DNA from: Escherichia phage Ec1-ASingh
Strand: one strand, 5' to 3'
Sequence record: PQ561393
DNA: 61,135 nt
Under the pieces are notes generated by a model. That model saw only the letters and a list, made by a program, of their open reading frames with translations, did no database searches and was not told the DNA's origin. This document shows positions 2,122 to 47,106 of the stretch, piece by piece; position 1 is the stretch's first letter; the number at the start of each line of letters is the position of its first letter. A program made the translations under genes and the position numbers.

Positions 2122-5100
2122 ATGGCTGATGCAGCTGATATCGTCATCCGAGTTAGAACAGACGGGGTCGCCGGTGCGGACGCTGCGTTACGCCGTCTGC
2201 AACAAACTGGTGTCCGCGTTGAGACAGTCAGCGCCAGAGTAGAGAATGGCTTCCGACGTACTGCACAGAGCGCCGAATTCTTCCATACGTCTGTCAGCGC
2301 CGTTAATACTGTAATGACTGCAACCGCTATCCTGGCCTACGTGGGCGGGTTGGCGAAGCTGTCGGATGCGTGGACAGATGTAACAAACAAATTAGCGAAC
2401 GCCAACTCCGCGCATGAAGGCATGGCGGTGATCCAGGAACGTGTGTTCAATATTGCACAGCGCACTCGTACCAGCCTGGAATCGACGGCCACCCTGTATG
2501 CACGTATGGAGCGATCCCTTTCTCAGTACGGGGTGACAGGCAAAGAGGTTGCACAGATCACTGAAACGATTAACAAATCGATGATTGTGTCTGGTGCAAC
2601 CAGTGCGGAAGCAACGGCAGCGATTATCCAATTCTCACAGGGTCTGCAATCGGGTGTCCTGCGCGGTGACGAATTCCGTTCTGTAATGGAACAGGCCCCG
2701 CGTCTCGGCAAGATGATCGCAGACGGTCTGGGCGTGGGCACTGCTGGCCTGCGCGAGATGGCGAACACCGGCAAACTGACCGCTGATGTGGTCATCAATG
2801 CTATCTCCAGGGCTTCAGGTACTATCGACGAAGAGTTCGGTCGTACTATGCCTACCTTTGCACAGCGCTGGGCGATGGCAACAAACAACGTTGAACGATT
2901 TGCAGGGACTTCCGTGCAGGTGCAGTCCGTTGTCAAAGCGATGGGCGATGGTGTAGAGCTGCTGTCTAATAACCTGGGCACGTTGACCACAATCGTTACA
3001 GGCGTCGTTGCCGCGGTTGGCGGTAAGATGCTTGCGGCGCTTGGGTCGCAGGTAGTTGCAATGATTCGGCTTTCCGCAGTGCAGGCAAGTAGCTCCGCTA
3101 TCAATATTAAGATGGTGGATGCAATTACCCGCTCCAGTGTCGCACGCTACAATGAAGCACAGGCTACATTAGCACAGGTTGCAGCAGAACGCACCAGGAT
3201 CCAGGCTGCACTCGCTGCGAACCAGCAATATTATAAGGGCATTGCGACGACGAACGCCCTTATGCAGAATACCCGCCAGGCTCGGGAGGCTACCGTCGCA
3301 GCAGCGGCGGCACAGGCCACGATGTCCACCGCGATGGGTACTGCTGCCACTGCGAGCCGCGTGCTTACCATAGGCCTTACAGGGTTGCGCACGGTTATGG
3401 GTTTCCTGGGCGGCCCGTTGGGTCTGGTGCTTCTCGCTGCGACTGCATGGTATACGTACAGCCAGAACGCCAAACAGGCGACGCAAGATTCTATAGATCT
3501 TGCAAGCTCGCAGGAAGATCTTAAAACAAAACTCGAGTCGCTGAACCTTGTACAGCAACGTGCTCTTGAAGTCCAGCTCCAGCGTGCAGGTGTAACACTG
3601 GCAGAAAACATTGCTGCTGAGAAAAGAGAGCTCGCGGAACTTAATAACCGCTTGAGCACTACCAGCACAGTGATGGCCCAGAACGAGGAAGGGACTCGAG
3701 CCTGGAACAGTGCTTACGAAGCTCACAAACAACTTACGGGCGATATTGCTATTAAGCAAGGTGAACTTTCTACGCTGGAAGAAAAGGCAATCCAGATTAA
3801 GAACAACCTTGCAACGGTTCAGGATAATCTGCGCAATGCTGTAATGGGCTTAACTGGTGCTATCGTTGCGCAGAACCAGGCGCTTGACATTAACATCAGT
3901 TCCGCGGCAGGTCGTTCTAAGGAACTCCAGGCTGCACTGGTAGCACAGAATGCCGAGCTAGATATCTCTAACATGAAGTTAGCAGGTAACAAGCGAGGCG
4001 CGGCACAGTTACAGGACGCACAGAACCGCCTCGGTAAGCAGTACGCAGCAAACGAAGACTTTATTAAGAACTATATTAGCGGTCATCAAGACGCTATGGC
4101 TGTCTTGACCGACGAGCAGCAAGGTATCGTAGAGTTCCTTAATAAATCTGGTCAAGCCTATGACGCACAAGAAAAGCTCCAAGAAAAGCTCAAGGCAGGA
4201 CGTCAAGCTCTGAAGGACGAGAAAGCTCTTGCGGCTTATGGGGAGCAGTGGGACAAGGCTTACGAACGCGTCGAGGCCCGAGGTGCTACAGGTTTAGACC
4301 GTTTGCGCATTCAGCAGGAAGCAGAAGTCCGTATTATGAAGGACAAAGCAGAGAAAGCTAAAGCGACCGAAGAGGAACTCGGTGCAGCCCTTAAAGCAAT
4401 CGATGCTAAATATGCGCGTCAGCGTGCAGACCTTGCGGGGCAGTATAAGCCTGGCGCCCAGATGGTGCGTGAGTGGCAGATTGCACAGCAGGAGATTAAA
4501 CAGCTCCACGAAGCTGGTCTGCTGGATGATGCACAATACAACACCGCGAGACTGAACCTATCCGCGGAGTATTACCAGAAGCGTGCAGCGATGTCTACGC
4601 TCAACCCGTTCCAGCAGTCGGAAGACACTAAACGGTCGGAGATGGACGCTCTGCAAGCGCAGTACAATACTCAGCTCCAGATGGCAGAAGGTAATGAACA
4701 ACAGCTCACTGCCATCAAAGAGAACTACGAGAAACAGCGTTACGACATTCAGATGAAGTATGCGCAGCAACAGGCGCAGGCGCAAGCACAGACTACGCTG
4801 TCCTATATCCAGAGTGTAAGCACGATTGCAGACAGCATGGCGGGCATACTTGAAGCGGCAGGAGCTAAATCCTCAGGGGCTTACAAAGTTATGTTCGCGA
4901 TGTCAAAAGCATTCTCCATTGCACAGGCGACGCTTAGTTTGAGCACAGCTATCGTCCAGGCTATGGCTGACCCGTCCGCCCTTACCCCTGCGCAGAAGTT
5001 TGCTAACTACGCCGCTGTAGCTGCCGCAGGTGGTGCGCTGATACAACAGATTATGAGCGCTAGTTTGACAGGTATGGCACACGACGGTATCACCCAAGTG

Positions 5101-23335: not shown

Positions 23336-24190
23336 TTACTCTGCGGACTGGTTGCCGTCCTGGCCTTCAGCTGCCGCCGGTGCAGGGATACTGACGCTGG
23401 CTGCGGCTGCTGCAATGTTAGCAGGAACCGGAACAGCGACGCGACCGCTGATACCGTGATATTTTTTCCAGCGAGCGTATTCGGCTTTCACGTTGGCTTC
23501 GTTCAGGCCTTTTTCCAGCGCCACCGGCAGCACGTAGGAAATCGGAGCGGTCTGGCCCATCGTGGTAGAGATGGCGTCGAACAGATCCCATGCAGCGCGG
23601 CACAGGGTGCCCACGGACGGTTTACGGATACCGTTCTGCTCGGGTTCTTTTTTCGCTTCGCGTTCCTGGCGCTTACGTTCAGCTTCCGCTTCGCGGTCAG
23701 CTTTTTCTTTCGCCTTTTTCTCTTCACGGGCTTTCTTATCCAGTTCAGCCTGTGCAGTTTTAGCGGCGTCCAGCTTTGACTTCAGATCTTTACCGGCCTG
23801 CTCGATCTGAGCCACCAGGCCTTCAGATTCGGTCACAGCCTGTTTCAGCGCGGTGCTTTCTTTTGCCTTACGGCCGGCAGCTTTAACAACCTTCAGACCT
23901 TCTTTAGCAGTCTTCAGGTTATCAGCGATAGCAGTCTGCGCGGATTTAACGTCTTCAACGGTGGAAGTTTCGTTCAGCGCACCGACAACGGCGTCAACGT
24001 TCGCTTTCGCGGAAGTGATGGTGTTATAACCGCCAGTCGCTTCAGTGATAGCGTCTTTTTCTTTCTGCTCCGCAGCTTCTTTAGCGCGACGTTCAGCGTC
24101 GGCCTTCTTCTGCTGTTCAGTCTTTTCAGCCGCTTTCTTAGCGGCTTCTTCCGCCTGGATCTGCTCTTTGGTTTTTTCTTTGCCAGCCAT
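23336..24190 (-). CDS. Lys/Glu/Ala-rich coiled-coil protein
   Basis: Start at ATG 24190 with RBS GGAG; highly charged low-complexity middle, structured C-terminus. Confidence 0.45.
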   Translation of the reverse strand: MAGKEKTKEQIQAEEAAKKAAEKTEQQKKADAERRAKEAAEQKEKDAITEATGGYNTITSAKANVDAVVGALNETSTVEDVKSAQTAIADNLKTAKEGLKVVKAAGRKAKESTALKQAVTESEGLVAQIEQAGKDLKSKLDAAKTAQAELDKKAREEKKAKEKADREAEAERKRQEREAKKEPEQNGIRKPSVGTLCRAAWDLFDAISTTMGQTAPISYVLPVALEKGLNEANVKAEYARWKKYHGISGRVAVPVPANIAAAAASVSIPAPAAAEGQDGNQSAE

Positions 24191-24288: not shown

Positions 24289-25023
24289 TTAACCGATTCT
24301 TTCTTTTTGCCAGGCACCGAGTGTATTACTGGATGTATTACGCTTCACACCCTGCGCTTCGAGAGTGTTCATCATCTCTTTACGCAGCTTGAGGATTTCG
24401 CTTTTATCGGTGGGTTTACCGGCTGCCTCCCACATAGCGTCCGCAACCTCAAAGATAATGTCCCGTGTGCCGCTTGCTCGCGGCGCTGTGCTGCGCTCGC
24501 CGCTGCTCTGTGCAGTTGCAGCACTGGTATCCCTGCCGGGCCTCCAAGCGGGCTGTGTGCCCGGTGTCACCTGTACGGGAGCTCCCGCTTCAATGGCAGC
24601 TTCTCCAGAGTGATCTGGTAAGGACTGGAAGTAAGGAGCTTCGCCATCGTGTACAATAGGACGATCACCGGTAGGACTATACAGGCAAGAACCCTGCCTG
24701 TCTTCGCCAATAGCCCAGTTGGCTTGTGAATCCGAATTCTCACCAATTTGTGTCTCCTGCATTTTGTTGAAGTAGTACACCAGGATTCGACAGACCACAT
24801 TACGCGCATAAGTCGCGCCGTCAGTGTTACCGGTCGTGTTGATGTACAGGAGTTGAAGCTGCACGTTGTCGAACTCTTTCTTAATCGAGTCCTCGTCCAG
24901 CGGTAGCACAATTGAACATTCACTACAGGTTAGGATCCCGTAGTCGTGAAGGCGTTGCCAGTTGGGATGTTTGGCAAGCGCACGCATGTTGTCGCCATCA
25001 ATTAAGATATACATTATTACCAC
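24289..25023 (-). CDS. Hypothetical protein, possible NYN/PIN-like N-terminal domain
   Basis: N-terminal YILIDGDN motif; disordered Ser/Thr/Pro-rich centre. Confidence 0.35.
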   Translation of the reverse strand: MVIMYILIDGDNMRALAKHPNWQRLHDYGILTCSECSIVLPLDEDSIKKEFDNVQLQLLYINTTGNTDGATYARNVVCRILVYYFNKMQETQIGENSDSQANWAIGEDRQGSCLYSPTGDRPIVHDGEAPYFQSLPDHSGEAAIEAGAPVQVTPGTQPAWRPGRDTSAATAQSSGERSTAPRASGTRDIIFEVADAMWEAAGKPTDKSEILKLRKEMMNTLEAQGVKRNTSSNTLGAWQKERIG

Positions 25024-43390: not shown

Positions 43391-43574
43391 TGGCAACCTC
43401 CTTAATACGTATGCGCACACATTACATTGACGGGCCGGCCGAACGCAATAGAGGTGACCACATTAAAGGTTAGTGCTTGAGATACAGTGTGGTCATGCTC
43501 GCCTCACAGACCCTCATGCGCAATCGGGGGGAGAGTGAATTTTTATGGTGCCCACTTTTAGAATTTGAGATTGT

Positions 43575-43629
43575 TAGCTGGCTATAGAAATATTTTTGCT
43601 GTTTATGCGAGATTGTATAGCTGGCTATA
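43575..43629. repeat. Direct repeat pair (g)attgt-tagctggctata, 43 bp apart
   Basis: 12-bp tagctggctata at 43575 and 43618. Confidence 0.6.
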
Positions 43630-43669
43630 TTGAGTTTTACAGGTCTAAATGTGCGTTGGCAAATTTTGT

Positions 43670-43985
43670 TGTAGGCTGTAGTAGACGTGTAGTAGGCGAT
43701 CTACTACACAAATAAAATATGGCGAAACCCGCGGCAGTGCTGGGAAATTTTGGCTCACAGCTCCGACTTGCACTGGCTGTAGTACGCGTTAAAGGGGTAT
43801 CTCGTAATACGCCAGCTAATAATTAGCCAAGTTAACGATTATTCTATAATAAAAAAAAAACATACTACATATACTACATATATATTTAGATACTCTCTAC
43901 AAACCCTGAAAACTCTCGCTTTTCGCGAAAATATTCCCGTTAAATCGCCCCCTACTACAGCGTACTACAGCCTACTACAGACCGA
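43670..43985. repeat. Iteron cluster: 9 copies of TACTACA / TGTAGTA
   Basis: Copies at 43678, 43688, 43702 (forming inverted repeat gtgtagtag-gcgat-ctactacac), 43778, 43863, 43872 and three tandem 10-mers cNtactacag at 43951-43980. Confidence 0.65.
43849..43860. other. A-tract (A12) within AT-rich segment
   Basis: ataataaaaaaaaaa flanked by AT-rich sequence between iteron copies. Confidence 0.6.
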
Positions 43986-44175
43986 GTCCGTGCCTGGGCG
44001 TGTGCGGACGGGCATAGCGCCTGCGTGCGTCTGCCCGCGCGTTATTAGCACATATTAAAACGGATTGCAAGCGATTATTGCGCTCGATGTGAAATCGGGC
44101 AAGCGAAATTGGATTTTTGTGGAGCAAAAACGATTCTATTTTATAGCAAAATATTCGGTAATTCAGACAATCCGC

Positions 44176-44285
44176 CTGCTAGTTATCAGATTGCTGACCA
44201 TCAGACTGCTAATTATTAGGTTGCTAACGATATGCAGCTAATGATCCGCCAGCTAACCATTAGAAGGCTAACGATTAGAACGCTA
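44176..44285. repeat. Tandem array of ~7 degenerate 14-16 bp repeats (consensus yTGCTAAyNATyAGA)
   Basis: ctgctagttatcaga / ttgctgaccatcaga / ctgctaattattagg / ttgctaacgatatgca / gctaatgatccgcca / gctaaccattagaa / ggctaacgattagaa. Confidence 0.6.
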
Positions 44286-44579
44286 TGGGATTTTTGCGGG
44301 TGTTTAAAGGGTGTTGGGTAGGGGTGCATAATCCCGAAAATAGCGCTCACTTTTCGGGGTTGTAGGCCGCGTTATACGGTTGCCGGTAGGGTAGCGAGGG
44401 TTAGGGGCTAAAATCGCTTAAAATCGCGCACAGCGCCTTTGGTTGCGTCGCTGTAAGGCAATATAAGCCGGACTGATTTGGGTCTGTAGGTTAGTATTGA
44501 CTGAAAGGAAGGCGGCTTACAGGGCGATACAGCGAAGGAACTAACGTGGTCAAGCTCGGAAGGTGGGGTGTTTTGGGGT

Positions 44580-44617
44580 GTAATAAACGTGAAAAACCCG
44601 TTGGATATCAACGGGTT
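44580..44617 (-). terminator. Rho-independent terminator ending the early minus-strand block
   Basis: 9-bp stem aacccgttg / caacgggtt, loop gatat, then U-rich run on minus transcript. Confidence 0.55.
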
Positions 44618-44643
44618 ATCAACTGTATAATGCAGTTAGAGGT

Positions 44644-44889
44644 TTATTTGATAGCTAACAATACCGCATAGCTATTATCTGGAAGCGTACCAGTACCAAC
44701 AATCTTCACCGGGCGACTTGCGCGAGCGTTGTAGCGGTCAACCAGCTCTTGCGCCGCGTAGGCGGCATTCGCTTCGCCGTTGAGGTTGTAGTCGTTGGGG
44801 GTAACGACGCACATATCAAGACCAGATGCCTTATAGCGCAGACCTTTCGTGCCGGTGGCAGACAGGGTTTTCACATGAATCGCTTTCAT
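44644..44889 (-). CDS. Hypothetical early protein
   Basis: 81 aa ORF. Confidence 0.45.
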   Translation of the reverse strand: MKAIHVKTLSATGTKGLRYKASGLDMCVVTPNDYNLNGEANAAYAAQELVDRYNARASRPVKIVGTGTLPDNSYAVLLAIK

Positions 44890-45236
44890 TTGACTTCCTC
44901 CGACCAGCGTTTGCAGTTCTTAAGCAGGCTAATGAATCCAGCCAGTGTGGATGCGGTGCAAGCGATGCGACCGAAAGCTCGAAGCTCGGCAAACACCTTG
45001 CCACTATCCCATACGGTTAACAAAATTTTGTAGCCGTAGCAGTTTACACGGTAGAGAACATAAATGTCGCTCGGGTTAGGGTTAACGCGAGCAACAATGG
45101 CAGTCTTGTGCAGCTTGAACATCCAGGACCCAATGATACGGCGAGTGATAATTGACTGGCTAACGATACTAGACATAATAGTTACCTGTGTGGTTATGCG
45201 GGAGTGCATAATAATGCTCACCGGATAGATGAGCAC
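44886..45236 (-). CDS. Hypothetical early protein
   Basis: GTG start at 45236, alternative ATG at 45209. Confidence 0.4.
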   Translation of the reverse strand: MLIYPVSIIMHSRITTQVTIMSSIVSQSIITRRIIGSWMFKLHKTAIVARVNPNPSDIYVLYRVNCYGYKILLTVWDSGKVFAELRAFGRIACTASTLAGFISLLKNCKRWSEEVK

Positions 45237-45245
45237 GATATGAAC

Positions 45246-45533
45246 TCACTTGATAGTGACCGAGCAGCCGAAGCCTTCGAGCTGGGCTTTCATTGTCATC
45301 ATCGCCTGCATATGTTGTACGGCGGTTTGCGTGGATGCCGGTTCTGTTGTCAAGACATACTTGTCGCCACCAAGAAAATCGGTAGCCACCTGAATATTGA
45401 CAGTTGGAAGGTGTGCGTACACGAAGCCATCACGAAACAGCTCGTGGGCGGTGATGTCATGGTTGCGTGACATCAGATGCGCAGCAGTGGACAGGAAAGC
45501 GTGAGACAGACGAACTTCGATAACAGTTTTCAT
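45246..45533 (-). CDS. Hypothetical early protein
   Basis: 95 aa ORF. Confidence 0.45.
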   Translation of the reverse strand: MKTVIEVRLSHAFLSTAAHLMSRNHDITAHELFRDGFVYAHLPTVNIQVATDFLGGDKYVLTTEPASTQTAVQHMQAMMTMKAQLEGFGCSVTIK

Positions 45534-45610
45534 GGTAACACCTTATTTTGAGAAGTAGAGACCCGCGAACAGCGGACCGGCGAACACGATAAACGCAGCG
45601 ATGTAGTACA

Positions 45611-46081
45611 TCATTTTGCCACCGCGTGGAATTTACGCCAGCCGTAGAACTCAATGGTGGCGTTGTTCAGATTCCACCCCTTCTGAGCTGCCAGTTCACG
45701 AACCACATGAATGTCAATCTCAAAACCCTGCTTTTTGATGTCGTCAAGCGTTGACCAAACTTCAGCGCATTTACCTTTAATCGGGCGACGCACACCATTG
45801 CGAATTTCGCTGCGCACCTTAGACGCTTTAGGCGCTTCCGGCGCGGCAGGTGCAGGCACCGCAACGGTGGCGATTTTGTCTGCCGCGATAGACGGGTTAG
45901 CTGCGCGGTTGACAGCCGCTTCGCTGAACCAGTAACGACCGCCGTCTTCGAGTGCTTCGAGGTTAATGAGCGAGTTTGCTACTTCGGTAGAGCAGTTGAA
46001 AATCTTTTTCAGAGCGCGACGCGCGTTAGACATGTTGGTGAAGAATTTAGCATCTTTGGTCGGTTTGGTTACAGTTGTCAT
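45611..46081 (-). CDS. Hypothetical early protein
   Basis: Start at ATG 46081 with RBS GAGGG; ORF track extends to 46171. Confidence 0.45.
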   Translation of the reverse strand: MTTVTKPTKDAKFFTNMSNARRALKKIFNCSTEVANSLINLEALEDGGRYWFSEAAVNRAANPSIAADKIATVAVPAPAAPEAPKASKVRSEIRNGVRRPIKGKCAEVWSTLDDIKKQGFEIDIHVVRELAAQKGWNLNNATIEFYGWRKFHAVAK

Positions 46082-46152
46082 TTTTAAACCCTCATTTTGT
46101 TCTAGCGATAGTGCTAGTGGAAGCACACTCAGCGAATGTGCAACCATTAGAA

Positions 46153-46338
46153 CTATTCGGTCAGTAAACAAGCAGGCAGTGAACCTAATTGCTGTACTGC
46201 GAACTTGTAAAACTCTACCATTTCGGTATCACCCATTCGCTGCGCTTCTGCGCACAGTTCAGGCAGAACGTCGCGAGCGCGTGAAACTGCTACAGACAGC
46301 GCGTAGACTTGGTCTTCGGTGAACTGCAATGTAACCAT
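46153..46338 (-). CDS. Hypothetical early protein
   Basis: 61 aa, first ORF downstream of divergent non-coding region. Confidence 0.4.
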   Translation of the reverse strand: MVTLQFTEDQVYALSVAVSRARDVLPELCAEAQRMGDTEMVEFYKFAVQQLGSLPACLLTE

Positions 46339-46465
46339 TTTGTAACCCCTTATTTCTGTGTTTTGCTGCTGTGTTTATATAGTAGCAGAACTAGAACTAA
46401 TGTCTAACTTTGTATTGTAAAGTAATGTAAAGGCACTACTACGTTAGGTCCATGGTGTATGGGTG

Positions 46466-46477
46466 CATGGGCCCATG
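46466..46477. repeat. 12-bp perfect palindrome catgggcccatg
   Basis: Self-complementary sequence in G-rich non-coding region. Confidence 0.6.
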
Positions 46478-46486
46478 GAGTGTGGA

Positions 46487-46517
46487 GGGTGTAGGCACGC
46501 TCAGGGTGTAGGTACGC
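46487..46517. repeat. Direct repeat gggtgtagg(c/t)acgc x2
   Basis: 14-bp units at 46487 and 46504. Confidence 0.6.
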
Positions 46518-46519
46518 AA

Positions 46520-46536
46520 GGGGTGGGCAGGGTGGG
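46520..46536 (+). other. Canonical G-quadruplex motif GGGG-T-GGG-CA-GGG-T-GGG
   Basis: Four G3+ tracts with 1-2 nt loops on plus strand within a 120-bp G-rich stretch. Confidence 0.5.
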
Positions 46537-47106
46537 CTCAGGTATGGTGGGGTAGGTATAGCACGCACACGCGTCTAGCATGTTTACGTATTAGATGCAA
46601 CTAATATCTTAAGTCTTCTGTAGCAAAAAGTGCTAAATCGAGATCGGCGCGAATCTATGCTAGGGTACAAGGTAGAGGGTAAAAGCGCCTACAGCGCCTT
46701 ACAGCGCCCTATAGCATAGGTGTATACATGTACAGGACTATGCAACAATCATACCAACATGCGGATGCACTATAGTAGTGCATGTGTGTACACATATCTA
46801 TACAGACAAAGAAAGACAAACAATCTAATCAATGTATGTAACAATAAGCATACTAATTAATAGACAAGCTATCGGTCACACGGCGTGACTATCACCTCAC
46901 CGATGATCAGCGATGCAACTGATAACGCCGCCGCGGCCTCCTGGTAACGTATCTCGCTTTCGTCTTACCAAGATTGAGTCGCCAGTAGGCACCCACACGC
47001 ATCCGTTTCGTCAGTAGACAAACTATCAAGTGGACTGTGCCACCTCACCCATCATAAACTTGCCCGTACCTGTTATTTCCATGTGTAAATACTCGAGAGG
47101 TGTACC

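Follow-up and report, generated by a model that had tools for sequence, protein, structure and literature searches.

What is encoded in the small leftward gene block at positions 44,644–46,338 of the DNA analyzed here from Escherichia phage Ec1-ASingh (sequence record PQ561393; the whole stretch of 61,135 nucleotides (nt) is referred to below as the window), and what might the block do for the phage? The initial annotation, made from the sequence alone, read it as five early genes of unknown function, placed and organized like host-takeover or anti-defense genes. The present analysis finds that the block is a leftward six-gene operon and a mosaic of conserved anchors and replaceable slots. The reading we favor, at a probability of roughly 0.55, is that of an immediate-early operon in which small cargo for host interaction accompanies a DNA-directed anchor (the product of the fourth gene, g4, together with a membrane peptide). 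The five annotated genes are numbered g1 to g5 by increasing coordinate, so that g5 stands first in the direction of transcription and g1 last.

Identity of the phage and reality of the gene block

On sequence comparison the window is a Nonagvirus-like siphophage of the Queuovirinae that groups with Klebsiella phages. Its two closest phages in GenBank, each with about 93% DNA identity over 3.5 kb around the block, are vB_Kpn2-P2 (PP848851) and vB_Kpn_K9PH25C2 (OY979394), the latter classified in GenBank as Queuovirinae, and the g4 protein has a counterpart with 99% identity in Klebsiella phage vB_KppS-Pokey, which was placed in or near Nonagvirus by its authors (PMC8006926). The map of K9PH25C2 has a single intergenic region from which two divergent arms start. 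One arm runs in order through small genes, a “late transcriptional activator”, lysis genes, terminase and structural genes; the other starts with a five-gene island, a 1.2-kb non-coding region and about 14 small genes, after which come primase, ligase, single-stranded DNA-binding protein, helicase, 7-deazaguanine (que/dpdA) genes and DNA polymerase. On this two-arm map the replication arm opens with the block as its first group of genes.

All five minus-strand open reading frames (ORFs) of the initial annotation are present where it put them and are annotated as hypothetical coding sequences (CDS) in both closest relatives, and the placement of the block between two non-coding regions also holds, with flanks of 768 bp (46339–47106) and 1223 bp (43421–44643). 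When the five ORFs were compared with both close relatives, every one of them showed a third-codon-position bias of substitutions, and the ratio of nonsynonymous to synonymous substitution rates (dN/dS) lay between about 0 and 0.46, which shows that purifying selection acts on them and that they are genuine genes and not chance ORFs. Good Shine-Dalgarno sequences are found for g1, g3, g4 and g5; the start of g2 is ambiguous. Plus-strand ORFs within the island were considered and deemed spurious, as the substitution pattern tracks the minus-strand frames, and no Rfam family or tRNA was detected by scanning the region and the window. The count of five genes has to be raised to six, as a minus-strand micro-ORF (45543–45614) occupies what looked like a gap between g4 and g3.

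The anchors of the mosaic are, on the one hand, g4 with the 23-amino-acid (aa) peptide of the micro-ORF and, on the other, g1, while the content of the slots differs between close relatives. This anchor-and-slot build is deduced from two positions in particular: that of g3, which is swapped for an unrelated 158-aa gene in the metagenomic relatives L010 and L011, and that of g5, which in Nonagvirus is held by a g2-family gene. The block is already present and labelled hypothetical in related GenBank phages, and to that extent its members are typical hypothetical early genes. At E up to 1 none of the five proteins had a match in Pfam, NCBIfam or PADLOC, a PDB sequence search returned none either, and neither these curated libraries nor fold searches assigned a function to any gene of the block; structure prediction did yield models for g4 and g1, but the fold matches obtained with them, weak in the case of g4, pointed to no function. 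The statement that none of the proteins has a recognizable motif is thus correct for Pfam, NCBIfam, PADLOC and PDB but not for PHROGs, where profile matches place g1 in phrog_3199 (E = 7.6e-22), g2 in phrog_13865 (E = 1.5e-16) and g4 in phrog_17772 (E = 7.3e-62). Nor are the five genes all orphans: g3 and g5 are, being confined to the clade, whereas g1, g2 and g4 have wider families, whose PHROGs carry no functional label.

The g4 protein and its domain family

The gene g4 (45611–46081, minus strand) encodes 156 aa when read from its ATG, the mechanical ORF extending to a TTG at 46171, and the product is basic, with an isoelectric point (pI) of 9.8. In the AlphaFold2 model an N-domain at residues 11–61 (predicted local distance difference test (pLDDT) about 75) is joined by a disordered Pro/Ala linker at 65–89 to a C-domain at 93–151, confidently modelled (pLDDT about 90) as a beta-hairpin with three helices. 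This C-domain, with the motif NGxRxP..G..C..W ... N..N...EY..WRKF, marks an unnamed phage domain family of which g4 is a type-2 member and which recurs in 637 protein clusters (50% identity), mostly at or near the C-terminus. Neither Pfam nor NCBIfam has a match to the family, and no source names it; it is core to 7-deazaguanine siphophages, with two copies per genome, and is an obvious target for biochemistry.

A tblastn search of the window with g4 as query revealed a second copy of the domain (E = 1.6e-6). It is a type-1 paralogue at 23336–24190 (minus strand; phrog_11298) whose 284 aa comprise a K/E/A-rich region and the C-domain, and it adjoins queE; its orthologues PaMx25 gp42 and R7M gp50 are encoded directly upstream of queE. 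Among cultured phages, full-length g4 is found in Nonagvirus and the C-domain across Seuratvirus, Nipunavirus, Amoyvirus, Vid5 and others. The g4-type gene of CAjan lies in an island resembling that of the window, and those of PaMx25 and R7M come after helicase, within the replication module, with a small protein bearing an N-terminal hydrophobic helix encoded next after it in PaMx25. As judged by these sequence relationships, g4 belongs to one of two ancient paralogue lineages core to the Queuovirinae and is not an accessory gene. As an ancient core protein whose domain is found again in the replication/queE module, g4 fits a DNA-binding housekeeping or regulatory role and not that of an arms-race gene.

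Two observations on the surroundings of this family may be recorded. The 244-aa neighbor of the 284-aa protein (phrog_7864; 24289–25023, minus strand) has a similar-looking three-helix C-terminal segment, as judged by eye. In the record of Pantoea phage Vid5 the strand or the annotation may be at fault, since the CDS Vid5_gp80 is annotated on one strand and the tblastn match to the g4 C-domain (4123–4683) lies on the other.

Going by the structural model, g4 probably binds nucleic acid. Its neighbors in fold searches are weak and mostly helix-turn-helix (HTH) or winged-helix proteins, and a BFVD search returned uncharacterized family members along with low-probability HTH and initiator matches. 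No HTH-family profile in Pfam matched g4, nor the C-domain in 148 family members, and a PDB profile search with those 148 members gave only a spurious CP12 match and nothing relevant. Some members of the family, g4 not among them, have weak N-terminal SAP or Rho_N matches below the Pfam gathering scores, and the assignment of the N-domain of g4 to SAP/HeH was rejected at an hhalign probability of 2%. The source names of ten distant relatives were uninformative (“hypothetical protein” or none), and a plasmid search with g4 found no match. Phages of very different hosts share an almost unchanged last helix of g4, and because this helix varies so little the ligand is probably universal and not a clade-specific DNA site; the possibility that g4 reads clade-specific iterons through this helix is disfavored, as the repeats differ between genera. 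We would accordingly look for the action of g4 on phage DNA, whether in transcription, replication or DNA organization, rather than on host defenses, and an anti-defense role for this protein is unlikely.

The overlooked sixth gene

The micro-ORF encodes 23 aa (MMYYIAAFIVFAGPLFAGLYFSK) with the makeup of a single hydrophobic helix (grand average of hydropathicity (GRAVY) 1.39) and lies in the 77-nt space between g4 and g3, its ATG overlapping the g4 stop codon (ATGA). Both close relatives have the same peptide after their g4 homologue, with synonymous nucleotide changes only. The variants MFYFAAFLVFAGPLAAGWYFSSK and MYYVAAFIVFAGPLVAGFYFSK occur in metagenomic relatives, and JenK1 and 9g have a peptide of 24 aa (MFYLLAFLVFGAPIVAGLYYTEGK) with its own strong Shine-Dalgarno sequence. 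A tblastn search returned 20 records, all Nonagvirus-like, and every match checked directly adjoins a g4 homologue. The peptide is annotated in BASEL phage FritzHoffmann (Bas20) as bas20_0075 and is unannotated in the Klebsiella relatives and in the RefSeq entries of 9g and JenK1, so that a conserved peptide has been overlooked in the annotations of the closest relatives and of both E. coli phages. Its product would be located in the membrane. In the island of the 9g RefSeq entry, an unannotated 270-bp gap (3140–3408) holds the ORF of the 24-aa peptide together with an ORF of 61 aa; the latter appears to correspond to JenK1 gp72 (phrog_5461), as judged by reading frame and length and not by a computed match.

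The second anchor and the variable genes

The gene g1 (44644–44889, minus strand) encodes 81 aa with a predicted beta-beta-beta-alpha-beta-beta fold. Its family, phrog_3199, includes CAjan gp69, an early-region protein of the T7-like phage vB_PaeM-G11 (class-I early region) and two copies each in the islands of JenK1 and 9g. The TetR-like label carried by a 9g member of this family (gp36) was rejected, as there was no Pfam match for gp36 or g1 and the g1 model has beta strands. The neighboring g2 (44886–45236, minus strand; phrog_13865), which overlaps the start of g1 by 4 nt (ATGA), encodes a basic protein of 116 aa if read from the GTG at 45236 or of 96 aa from the ATG at 45176. Its family is duplicated in the JenK1 island, as gp74 by PHROG score and gp69 by a tblastn match to g2, and members of both the g1 and the g2 family, at times in duplicate, are found again in islands of Nonagvirus and Seuratvirus. 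A HicAB-like pair made up of g2 and g1 was considered and rejected, there being no profile matches and no conservation of the pairing.

The two remaining genes are clade-specific orphans. Relatives of g3 (45246–45533, minus strand; 95 aa, dN/dS 0.04–0.27), which stands in a variable slot, are limited to 16 protein clusters, none below 64% identity, and 2 phage records. The acidic product of g5 (46153–46338, minus strand; 61 aa, pI 4.4, dN/dS about 0–0.04) was found by tblastn of the phage collection only in the 2 Klebsiella relatives and has no PHROG, Pfam or PDB match. Standing in turnover slots, g3 and g5 would be the best candidates for host-interaction functions, be it takeover or anti-defense, and the anchor-and-slot anatomy singles out g3, g5 and the g1 and g2 families, not g4, as the genes worth testing for host interaction.

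Promoter, terminator and flanking non-coding DNA

A pattern scan places a sigma-70-like promoter at 46379–46406 on the minus strand, about 40 nt upstream of the g5 start, with TAGACA, a 16-nt spacer and TGn-TACTAT. The site has 9 of 12 matches to the consensus hexamers together with the TG extension and is kept within the Klebsiella clade; the scan found 10 such sites in total against 6.9 expected by chance. Going by its sequence and place, it may act as the promoter of the island. At the other end of the block an intrinsic-terminator-like hairpin (44583–44610, minus strand) has a 9-bp stem (44588–44596 paired with 44602–44610), a 5-nt loop and then U5. In its 91-nt context it scores -19.3 kcal/mol (z = -5.5 against shuffles), and it is kept in the E. 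coli Nonagviruses JenK1 and 9g with altered stem bases. The initial annotation spoke of a strong terminator; the hairpin is real and conserved, but “strong” is unproven, because the consensus terminator scan omits it and the U-tract is short, at 5 U of which two are able to pair in the stem. Between the g1 stop and the terminator, alignment reveals a 17-nt block, TGTATAATGCAGTTAGA (44620–44637), identical in the Klebsiella clade and E. coli Nonagvirus bar one base in JenK1. On the plus strand it forms an extended -10 promoter (scan match 44602–44631), predicted to run antisense into g1 and g2.

The left non-coding region (43421–44643) is rich in repeats. It holds 9 of the window's 15 copies of TACTACA (43677–43979), in both orientations, an A/T-rich tract near 43840–43890, a block of about 85 nt at 44060–44145 that is conserved to Nonagvirus, and at 44163–44290 an array of GCTAAC..ATTAG with a 15-bp period, which is a Klebsiella-clade insertion absent from JenK1 and 9g. 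The region is a candidate for an origin, for middle promoters or for a partition-like site. The motif AAGCGATT has three exact copies, all of them within 44069–44885, but was rejected as a conserved binding site, its one-mismatch count not being enriched (57 versus 54.6 expected). Just upstream of the first gene past the non-coding region, an element of about 20 nt (ATTGT(T/A)TAGCTGGCTATA...) occurs twice, at 43570–43590 and about 43610–43630, and the three copies of GCCAGCTAA in the window all fall in this region; both are candidate phage-specific promoter or operator elements.

The divergent non-coding region on the other side (46339–47106) has two copies each of the conserved GATGCAACT (46594 and 46912) and of CACCTCACC. 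Kulikov et al. (2014, PMC4276943) mapped a physical end of the 9g DNA to nucleotide 28,243, which lies in the divergent intergenic region of that phage and aligns to about 46940 of the window. The CACCTCACC repeats, at 46893–46907 and 47041–47055, flank the corresponding place within a conserved block, and by analogy with 9g it is possible that 46875–47055 is a packaging-recognition region.

Interpretation of the block

By its position and by the literature on 9g, the island would be expressed early: the arm of 9g that starts with the homologous island as its first gene group was called early or early/middle (PMC4276943). A search of the literature for transcriptomics, escape mutants or anti-defense work on the genes of the block found nothing relevant. 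The immediate-early operon that we favor builds on the observed gene reality, operon anatomy, family membership, conservation pattern and predicted folds. The island would be the first transcription unit of the early/replication arm, with transcription starting at the host-type (sigma-70) promoter, at the edge of a divergent region that by 9g homology would also hold the packaging end, and ending, at least partly, at the conserved hairpin. Its first anchor would be g4, a basic two-domain protein working on phage DNA and translationally coupled to the conserved membrane peptide, and its second g1, a small alpha/beta protein with relatives in early regions of other phages; g2 would be drawn from a family duplicated within islands, and g3 and g5 would be orphans in turnover slots with, possibly, host-directed roles. 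The claim of the initial annotation that position and organization are typical of host-takeover or anti-defense genes is upheld in part, in that the block is promoter-proximal on the replication arm, its 9g counterpart was called early, its slots turn over and g1 has a relative in a T7-like early region, but g4 does not fit that picture, being an ancient core protein with a second copy by queE.

Of the other explanations, the one that fares best, possible if rather doubtful, is a cassette for anti-defense or host takeover, in which at least one small protein inhibits a defense system or a nuclease or shuts off host functions. The promoter-proximal position on an arm called early in 9g would suit such a cassette, as would the gene turnover in the g3 and g5 slots between close relatives, the expansion of g1 and g2 paralogues in Nonagvirus islands, the g1 relative in a class-I early region and the small, acidic nature of g5. 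The anti-restriction or nuclease-inhibitor role suggested in the initial annotation found no support, however, as no gene resembles a known anti-defense, nuclease-inhibitor or defense-related family in Pfam, NCBIfam, PADLOC or fold searches. In addition, conservation across genera, as seen for g4 and g1, is not what arms-race genes typically show, and restriction evasion is already provided in this phage group by 7-deazaguanine DNA (PMC8594841).

An unlikely reading, but one kept alive because of the pseudolysogeny of 9g and the low virulence of the Klebsiella relatives, is a regulatory switch in which g4, perhaps with g1 and g2, controls the face-to-face/divergent promoters and the downstream non-coding region and so balances a productive against a low-virulence, carrier-like state. 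Stable pseudolysogenic associations were described for 9g, the authors likening its layout, with divergent promoters, to that of a temperate phage (PMC4276943), and the Klebsiella relatives Pokey and Eggy had low virulence, did not collapse cultures and were called putatively temperate, albeit without an integrase (PMC8006926). The HTH-like and basic character of g4 and the repeat-rich non-coding DNA on both sides of the block are consistent with a switch. Yet a last helix that is nearly invariant over the phages of many hosts, next to flanking repeats that are clade-specific, argues against site recognition through that helix, the g4-type gene of PaMx25 and R7M lies inside the replication module and not at a switch region, and the TetR-like label in 9g is unsupported. 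The function of the cassette, whatever it is, bears on therapy use because Klebsiella members show poor lytic behavior in published tests (PMC8006926).

More speculative, and something of a long shot, is a joint reading in which the C-domain would be a new and widespread class of phage nucleic-acid-binding domain with one universal ligand and two ancient lineages, one of them always by queE. Phage DNA, in modified or replicating form, could be that ligand, early g4 and the 23-aa membrane peptide would organize or protect the incoming genome, and the turnover slots (g3, g5 and the g1/g2 families) would encode undescribed inhibitors of host immunity.

There is a slim chance that the block belongs to an origin-associated module, the 1.2-kb left non-coding region being a replication origin and the island proteins its initiator or accessory factors. 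Its sequence features (the 15-bp-spaced array, the nine TACTACA, the A/T-rich tract and the conserved blocks) point in that direction, together with g4 relatives that adjoin helicase in other genera, very weak BFVD matches to replication initiators and a read coverage in 9g that is 1.5-fold higher over the early half (PMC4276943). But the iteron array is the insertion that JenK1 and 9g lack, no island protein resembles a known initiator, and the invariant helix argues against sequence-specific reading of iterons.

By analogy with lambda, the end at which packaging starts is normally the last DNA to enter the cell. Since packaging was inferred to start at this end by Kulikov et al. (PMC4276943), and neither homologues of T5 pre-early genes nor any experimental hint of two-step injection in Queuovirinae was seen, an analogue of the T5 first-step transfer, in which the island enters first and the repeat-rich non-coding region is the injection stop, is very improbable, even though the homologous 9g physical end lies about 600 bp from the island and a repeat-rich non-coding block follows it.

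Comparison with known systems

The immediate-early operon proposed here is matched most closely by the left-end early island of Nonagvirus (9g, JenK1 and FritzHoffmann/BASEL Bas20), which has the same position, with the divergent promoter region on one side and a non-coding region of about 0.8–1.1 kb on the other, and which shares the g4 homologue (about 60% identity), the 24-aa peptide, g1- and g2-family genes and the terminator hairpin. The window differs in that the g1 and g2 families are each represented once, not twice, in its extra iteron array, and in carrying g3 and g5, specific to its clade, at sites taken in Nonagvirus by phrog_5461, phrog_18706 and g2-family genes. As an observation apart, a preprint (bioRxiv 10.64898/2026.07.11.737809) calls Bas20 and Bas21 T5-like Markadamsvirinae with two-step injection; because Bas20 (FritzHoffmann) is Nonagvirus in GenBank, common taxonomy does not, for Bas20 at least, account for the restriction of only T5 and Bas20/Bas21 by Retron-Kva2.

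At the level of single proteins, the g4 C-domain, a compact, basic, three-helix bundle after a beta-hairpin, may be compared with HTH and winged-helix domains (GntR/FadR, BrxR, CapW, homeodomain), the best of its weak structural neighbors being HTH proteins. The g1 model aligns over 57–65 residues with HicB (6g1n, 6g1c) and TTHA1756, and it may resemble the N-terminal domain of HicB-like antitoxins or small alpha-beta folds like that of the double-stranded RNA-binding domain. The micro-ORF product may be compared in size and hydrophobic helix with small peptides such as the type I toxins Ibs and TisB and the regulators KdpF and AcrZ. It differs from the type I toxins in that it would be co-translated with g4 and is not under antisense-RNA control, and no sequence similarity is known.

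At the level of organization, the comparison is with genes 0.3–0.7 of T7 and the immediate-early ORFs of T4. The block has no sequence or fold relation to Ocr, gp0.7 or gp2, two of its genes are a conserved core, and its timing is inferred. The likeness lies in small, fast-evolving genes, mostly of unknown function, that are driven by a host promoter and have a terminator at their end, and it extends to the T7-like phage vB_PaeM-G11, which has a member of the g1 family in its class-I early region.

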